Shown piece after piece: positions 31,080 to 31,150 of a stretch of 40,994 bases of DNA; position 1 is the stretch's first letter, and every line of letters starts with the position of its first letter. The translations under genes were made by a program, and so were the position numbers. Under the pieces are notes generated by a model that did no database searches, was not told the origin of the DNA, and saw nothing but the letters and a program-made list of their open reading frames with translations. This DNA is from a virus. Taxonomy: Duplodnaviria > Heunggongvirae > Uroviricota > Caudoviricetes. Location of the stretch: IMG/VR virus record IMGVR_UViG_2617270943_000004, positions 1 to 40,994 of that record. The stretch is one strand, 5' to 3'.

Positions 31080-31150
31080 TCCTGTGGATTGATCCAGTCT
31101 TTCTACATCAGGCCTCAAAACTGTTGCAGCAGTCTTGAGGCTTTTCTTTT
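31080..31150 (+). ncRNA. Predicted oop-like antisense RNA overlapping the 3' end of cII
   Basis: Plus-strand intrinsic terminator (stem GCCTCAA/TTGAGGC 31112-31141, then CTTTTCTTTT) lies inside the last ~40 nt of minus-strand cII; 5' end and promoter not resolved. Confidence 0.4.

Follow-up and report, generated by a model that had tools for sequence, protein, structure and literature searches.

A predicted P22-type pO-oop-tO cassette opposite the 3' end of cII in a P22-like lambdoid prophage

The window, that is, the whole 40,994-nucleotide stretch of DNA analysed here (IMG/VR record IMGVR_UViG_2617270943_000004, positions 1 to 40,994), is a complete mosaic P22-like (Lederbergvirus-type) Escherichia coli prophage. 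Its closest relatives are CUS-3, HK544/HK446 and Huey. Probable host ORFs are found at both window ends (1-933 and 39747-40994), and the immunity/replication region is mostly on the minus strand. The features referred to below are as follows.

1009-1083, plus strand: tRNA-Arg(CCU)
1209-2402, plus strand: integrase-sized ORF adjoining tRNA-Arg(CCU)
28731-30107, minus strand: DnaB-like helicase
30104-30925, minus strand: O-like initiator (Pfam Phage_rep_O)
30912-31073, minus strand: 53-aa ORF, homologue of HK97 gp53, outside the predicted RNA, with its start codon and Shine-Dalgarno sequence under pO
31048-31053, plus strand: predicted pO -35, TGGTAT, with a 17-bp spacer, aligning with the annotated P22 pO -35 TGGTCA
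31066-31098, plus strand: conserved 33-bp pO/5'-oop 'high homology region', matching the region of Hayes et al. (2012)
31068-31076, plus strand: predicted pO extended -10, TGtCATAAT, identical to that of lambda pO
31084-31150, plus strand: predicted oop RNA of ~67 nt with +1 at G31084, from alignment with lambda oop and P22C-oop
31084-31106, plus strand: weak 5' stem-loop of the predicted oop RNA (GUGGA...UCUAC), from folding
31110-31143, plus strand: tO terminator hairpin of 9 bp, an A·C mismatch and 5 bp, with loop UGCA, from RNA folding
31142-31150, plus strand: terminator T-run, TTTTCTTTT
31108-31386, minus strand: cII (P22 c1-type activator gene, 92 aa; Pfam Phage_CII)
31506-31723, minus strand: cro
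31771-32493, plus strand: cI-like repressor

The whole prophage seems to be integrated at tRNA-Arg(CCU). Pfam Phage_CII matches the cII product over its full length (E = 1.9e-44). No Pfam match was obtained for the 53-aa ORF; Sf6 gene 42 and ES18 gp58 are annotated as homologues of HK97 gene 53. Inside the O-like gene, four iteron-like repeats of ~16 nt (AGCYGNNYTRGCTWAT) with a spacing of 20-24 bp (30504-30586) presumably constitute the replication origin, and a direct repeat of TATTGTCTTTTGT lies just upstream of them at 30470-30500. The same gene contains, in antisense orientation, a G/C-rich hairpin (GCCGCCCCCGTTAGGGGGTAAGGGGG) with a T-rich run (30438-30470, plus strand), which is among the three strongest hairpin and T-run sites of the window. 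A symmetrical hairpin (AACCCGACCTTAGCGTCGGGTT) that is T-rich on both sides (32524-32545) is located just past the end of the cI-like gene at 32493 and resembles a bidirectional terminator.

The plus strand at 31110-31150 reads AGGCCTCAAAACTGTTGCAGCAGTCTTGAGGCTTTTCTTTT. In the predicted RNA fold, 31110-31118 pair with 31135-31143 and 31120-31124 with 31129-31133, the two helices being separated by an A31119·C31134 mismatch. The cII stop codon (complement of 31108-31110) is exactly where the hairpin begins; on the 3' side of the hairpin comes the U-tract UUUUCUUUU, the opposite strand of which codes for Lys-Glu-Lys in the cII tail. For RNA 31078-31152 the folding energy is -26.5 kcal/mol (z = -4.5), a value that none of 200 shuffles reaches. 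The terminator was absent from a simple scan because loops there were limited to 3-8 nt and an internal mismatch was not handled. That scan was replaced by a fold-based search for hairpins with T-runs over both strands of the window, in which tO ranks fourth of 48 candidates at -17.7 kcal/mol; 20 dinucleotide-preserving shuffles of the window gave no such site at -18 kcal/mol or stronger.

An earlier note on this DNA had described a plus-strand intrinsic terminator with a T-run inside the 3' end of cII, and a terminator of this kind with a strong fold is indeed present at 31110-31150. The note had confined it to the last ~40 nt of minus-strand cII, which agrees with its coverage of the last 40 coding nucleotides plus the stop codon. 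Of the '7-bp stem + T-run' given there, the T-run stands and the stem length does not, the stem being one of 9 + 5 bp. The statement that no plus-strand gene precedes the terminator is also borne out; the sole plus-strand ORF across the hairpin (31026-31247, GTG start, 73 aa) is without a Pfam match and was dismissed.

Upstream of the terminator, the window contains the 33-bp region of pO and the 5' end of oop that Hayes et al. (2012; PMC3349717) used to find oop in 23 lambdoid phages, a set that includes P22, ES18, HK620, Sf6 and HK97. All 29 specified bases of this region match, against 0 matches expected by chance (100 shuffles). On the cII strand it reads ACTGGATCaATCcACAGGAGTaATTATGaCAAA; window positions 31066-31098 (TTTGTCATAATtACTCCTGTgGATtGATCCAGT) align base for base with the pO -10 and oop 5' end of lambda (TTTGTCATAATgACTCCTGTtGATaGATCCAGT). 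The lambda oop strand carries TTGAGT, a 17-bp spacer, CATAAT, gactcct and then GTTGATAGATCCAGT, and by homology to lambda the +1 of the predicted RNA is placed at G31084. In the Sf6 record the pO/5'-oop junction is annotated as the boundary sequence bsq5.

The -10 hexamer CATAAT (31071-31076) includes, as its CAT, the complement of the ATG with which the 53-aa ORF starts, so that at the level of sequence the -10 of a sigma-70 promoter lies across the next gene's start codon. In lambda, the pO- mutation lies in the pO -10, at a distance of 2 bp from the start codon of O (PMC3985674). A TG two bases upstream of CATAAT is present in all 23 upstream variants among the matches listed in the IMG/VR scan described below, for which CATAAT was part of the search motif for every collected variant and the TG was left unconstrained in the looser motif. 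The -35 element of the window is weak, with two to three of six matches to TTGACA; TGGTAT (17-bp spacer) or the alternative CTGGTA at 31047-31052 (18-bp spacer) is a poorer element than lambda TTGAGT or P22 TGGTCA. Promoter strength in this upstream variant, which is the commonest among the matches listed (68 of 199 junction-bearing loci), would hence come solely from the extended -10. Coding and promoter constraint are inseparable at the -35, because CCTGGTA, which provides the Tyr-Gln codons of the 53-aa ORF and is conserved among variants of that ORF, coincides with it.

The promoter, which the earlier note could not place confidently, is now placed by homology to the 33-bp region, to lambda and to the P22 annotation. 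Its expectation that the RNA start would overlap the ribosome-binding site of the 53-aa ORF calls for a minor correction: the promoter DNA, with its -10 at 31071-31076, overlaps both the start codon and the ribosome-binding site, whereas an RNA beginning at G31084 would merely abut the Shine-Dalgarno sequence, whose complement CTCCT (31079-31083) forms the spacer between the -10 and +1. Lambda pO is placed in the same way relative to gene O. The comparison with the lambda oop/PO region proposed in the same note yields the base-for-base alignment given above.

The predicted RNA lies opposite cII; it starts in the intergenic spacer that follows cII and ends inside the cII 3' end, where it overlaps the last 40 coding nucleotides plus the stop codon. 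It would be fully complementary to the pR transcript over ~67 nt (the cII-orf53 spacer and the cII 3' end). A rho-independent terminator in the cII tail some 60-80 nt from +1, as in an OOP cassette, is present. The 5' stem-loop shows a single variant among relatives, a G-to-A change at position 3 that keeps the pair. All of the sequence features that define a pO-oop-tO cassette are thus found together, in support of the oop-like antisense terminator that had been suggested for the 3' end of cII, and we regard it as very probable that the cassette is a P22-type pO-oop-tO of a P22-like lambdoid prophage, its transcription being predicted from homology.

The closest counterpart is the oop of P22, which was described from sequence by Backhaus & Petri (1984), as cited in PMC13397905. 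P22C-oop, a 63-nt RNA (GAUUGAUCCAGUCUUUCUACAUCAGGCCUCAAAACUGUUCCCGCAGUCUUGAGGCUUUUCUUU), was identified in 2026 by small-RNA-seq of P22-infected Salmonella and was present only in infected samples, at 653 and 1513 RPM (PMC13397905); a literature search with the RNA sequence itself returned this paper alone. It maps to window positions 31087-31149 with 61 of 63 nucleotides identical (~97%), the two differences being in or beside the loop. The P22-pbi record (AF527608) carries an annotated promoter (TGGTCA, 17 bp, CATAAT; 'homology with phage lambda') and an annotated terminator, both at the homologous position on the same strand. The two phages share position, strand, architecture, stem arms, the -10 CATAAT with its upstream TG and a cII-type (P22 c1-like) target ending in ...SFEA*. 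They differ in the loop region, where TTGCAG in the window corresponds to TTCCCG in P22, giving Cys and Gly, respectively, in the cII tail; the difference at 31129 turns the innermost U·G pair into U-C in P22. The region upstream of the junction contains the HK97-gp53-type ORF and the -35 TGGTAT in the window but orf48 and TGGTCA in P22, and the hosts are E. coli and Salmonella, respectively.

Lambda OOP shares with the window the 33-bp region including the -10, the +1 and the first 15 nt, the antisense position over the cII 3' end, a terminator in the cII tail in which Lys codons give the U-tract, and a pO lying over the following gene's start codon (gene O in lambda). Over its 3' two-thirds, terminator included, the RNA cannot be aligned with that of lambda. 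The window RNA is predicted at ~67 nt with 43 nt of cII overlap, compared with 77 nt and 55 nt in lambda (PMC3349717); its 5' hairpin is much weaker than that of lambda, and its next gene is the 53-aa ORF, which is absent from lambda (PMC3349717).

OOP-BTP1 of the Salmonella prophage BTP1 was annotated from RNA-seq (Owen et al., 2020; PMC7067206). It occupies the same locus and has the same 5' region, and differs from the window in carrying a sister terminator (GGCCUCGAAGAA...UUCUUCGGGGC; full sequence GGCCUCGAAGAAUUCGCCGUUCUUCGGGGC) and the cII tail APKNGEFF, with five stem pairs changed on both sides. Both P22-type hairpin alleles are therefore backed by transcripts in relatives, P22 and BTP1, and on this homology the RNA of the window is predicted. 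OOP-like sequences have also been catalogued in Stx phages, HK022/HK97, 434, 21, Sf6, ES18 and HK620 (Hayes et al., 2012, Figs S1/S2; PMC3349717). All of these have the same cassette, found with the same 33-bp probe, and differ from the window in their terminator and cII-tail alleles; Sf6, ES18 and HK620 among them are P22-like phages. In the Sf6, ES18 and HK-phage GenBank records examined, oop itself is unannotated; the features labelled 'terminator' and 'promoter' within the BLAST match to Sf6 and ES18 were rejected as oop, being tR1, PRE and PRM. An Rfam 15 scan of the window gave no match, and lambda's own oop likewise lacks a family-level match, from which it follows that Rfam 15 has no OOP family and that the missing match has no bearing on the identity of the window's RNA. 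A link to prophage anti-sRNAs, suggested by a weak full-length AgvB match exactly over lambda oop (17 bits against a gathering score of 56), was rejected: AgvB-type sRNAs sit between the late promoter and the lysis genes, and the region in the window gives no match of this kind.

The cassette was then compared across lambdoid phages by scanning IMG/VR with the junction motif CATAATnACTCCTG, for which matches were listed in at least 119 viral DNA stretches, and by adding relatives of cII; those from the protein-based search are 90-100% identical and added little diversity. Among the matches listed there are 199 instances of the junction, with 53 distinct downstream 90-mers; conservation of the junction is partly circular because the motif was the search key, and the downstream terminator was not in the motif. 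A hairpin with a T-run ending 66-83 nt from the predicted +1 is found in 51 of the 53 distinct downstream sequences among the matches listed, and the exceptions to this layout appear to be unrelated contexts. Four main terminator types can be distinguished: lambda, HK022/HK97, window/P22 and the BTP1 sister.

The window and BTP1 sister stems, which MAFFT placed out of register, differ by five pairs changed on both sides with pairing kept; these five compensatory pairs may reflect one replacement event and not five independent ones. The corresponding cII tails are PQDCCNSF (window, 31111-31137, minus strand) and APKNGEFF (BTP1, 30495-30531), in which seven of eight residues differ. The two alleles read the 5' arm of the hairpin in different codon phases, because an additional A in the A-run is combined with a hairpin shorter by one base. 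Where close relatives of the window differ within the hairpin, they do so in or beside the loop (TTGCAG, TTCCCG, TTGCCG), and in the lambda/HK022-type group compensatory alternatives occur at three of 11 consensus terminator pairs. The tail peptide of cII appears free to change while the hairpin and the Lys-rich complement of the U-tract are kept, and the C-terminal tail may be set by the terminator and not by protein function. Lambda CII does not need its last 17 residues for activity, but OOP control requires them (PMC12197685, PMC3985674, PMC3349717).

By analogy with lambda, a mechanism can be proposed in which host sigma-70 RNA polymerase would start at the extended -10 TGtCATAAT (31068-31076) and transcribe the plus strand from about G31084 to the intrinsic terminator at 31110-31150, giving an RNA of ~63-67 nt. 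This RNA would pair with the cII-orf53 spacer and the cII 3' end of the pR transcript, and the duplex may be cut by RNase III, as is the OOP/cII mRNA duplex of lambda (PMC3349717, PMC3985674, PMC12197685). Destabilization of cII mRNA would then lower CII and favour lytic growth over lysogeny. According to papers citing Krinke & Wulff, RNase III-dependent control of cII by OOP has been demonstrated for lambda alone.

Since pO faces pR, it may also damp pR transcription into the replication genes, as reported for lambda, where pO reduces pR transcription beyond its own position and is required for replication to initiate normally (PMC3985674). Promoter occupancy or collision with pR transcription could throttle expression of orf53-O-P, as proposed for lambda pO. 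That the P22-type cassette does more than antisense control of cII is nevertheless something we consider unlikely. A trans-acting or vesicle-exported role of oop is hinted at in the 2026 P22 paper (PMC13397905), and P22-type oop may have such a role.

A stronger form of this idea is that pO acts mainly as a convergent promoter hindering pR transcription into orf53-O-P and so tuning replication, the RNA being largely a by-product. In lambda, inactivation of pO raises pR read-through and impairs replication in a manner that oop RNA levels do not explain (PMC3985674), and pO of the window heads the replication module, ~500 bp from the origin iterons at 30504-30586. A role of the promoter by itself leaves unexplained, however, why compensatory changes should preserve a strong terminator at a constant distance within cII, and lambda OOP supplied in trans inactivates cII expression (PMC3349717). 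We hold this account to be rather unlikely as the main function; promoter interference and antisense RNA are in any case compatible, so that it describes an added function and not a true alternative to an antisense RNA against cII.

It is very unlikely that the inverted repeat acts instead on the sense strand, as a 3' stabilizing hairpin or processing site of cII mRNA with the T-run reflecting a Lys-rich tail, even though the repeat folds in cII mRNA too and is located precisely at the stop codon. The plus-strand stems have interior U·G pairs in 27 of 28 lambda/HK022-type cases, in the sister allele and in ES18, and each such pair would be a C·A mismatch in the cII sense, an indication that selection acts on the structure of the oop strand. 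Moreover, among the matches listed the hairpin is consistently placed 66-83 nt past a conserved plus-strand promoter, and RNAs with exactly these ends have been sequenced in P22 (PMC13397905). A chance hairpin and T-run with no function is extremely improbable: Lys codons AAA/AAG do yield opposite-strand T-runs for free, but the fold is too strong (z = -4.5, with no site in the shuffled window reaching -18 kcal/mol), the hairpin is kept with compensatory changes across unrelated cII tails, and transcripts are seen in P22 (PMC13397905) and BTP1 (PMC7067206).

The P22-type oop is already known, from the 1984 sequence description as cited in later work, the P22 annotation, the 2012 catalogue and the RNA detected in 2020 and 2026, and its recognition as the likely identity of the antisense cassette in this prophage matters little beyond correct annotation. 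Mildly new, in a descriptive sense, are the retention of the hairpin across a shift of codon phase in the cII tail and the strand-specific G·U evidence, and the comparative data make a small clean example of an RNA structure retained within a coding sequence whose peptide product drifts. Because oop is usually unannotated and Rfam is without an OOP model, it will continue to turn up as an apparent discovery in genome scans; either a covariance model or the 33-bp probe combined with a terminator check would label oop automatically in the many P22- and lambda-like prophages that have it.

Two further observations concern the scan and the surrounding prophage. Three IMG/VR contigs (L059, L117 and L009) carry the junction motif CATAATnACTCCTG without an oop-like hairpin downstream, and these junctions may be chance matches or belong to a different gene context. 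Elsewhere in the window, tRNA-Thr(UGU) (24752-24827, minus strand) and tRNA-Asn(GUU) (24833-24907, minus strand) lie just downstream of a Q-sized ORF (24970-25488), and BTP1 has the same tRNA-Thr/tRNA-Asn pair between Q and the holin gene.
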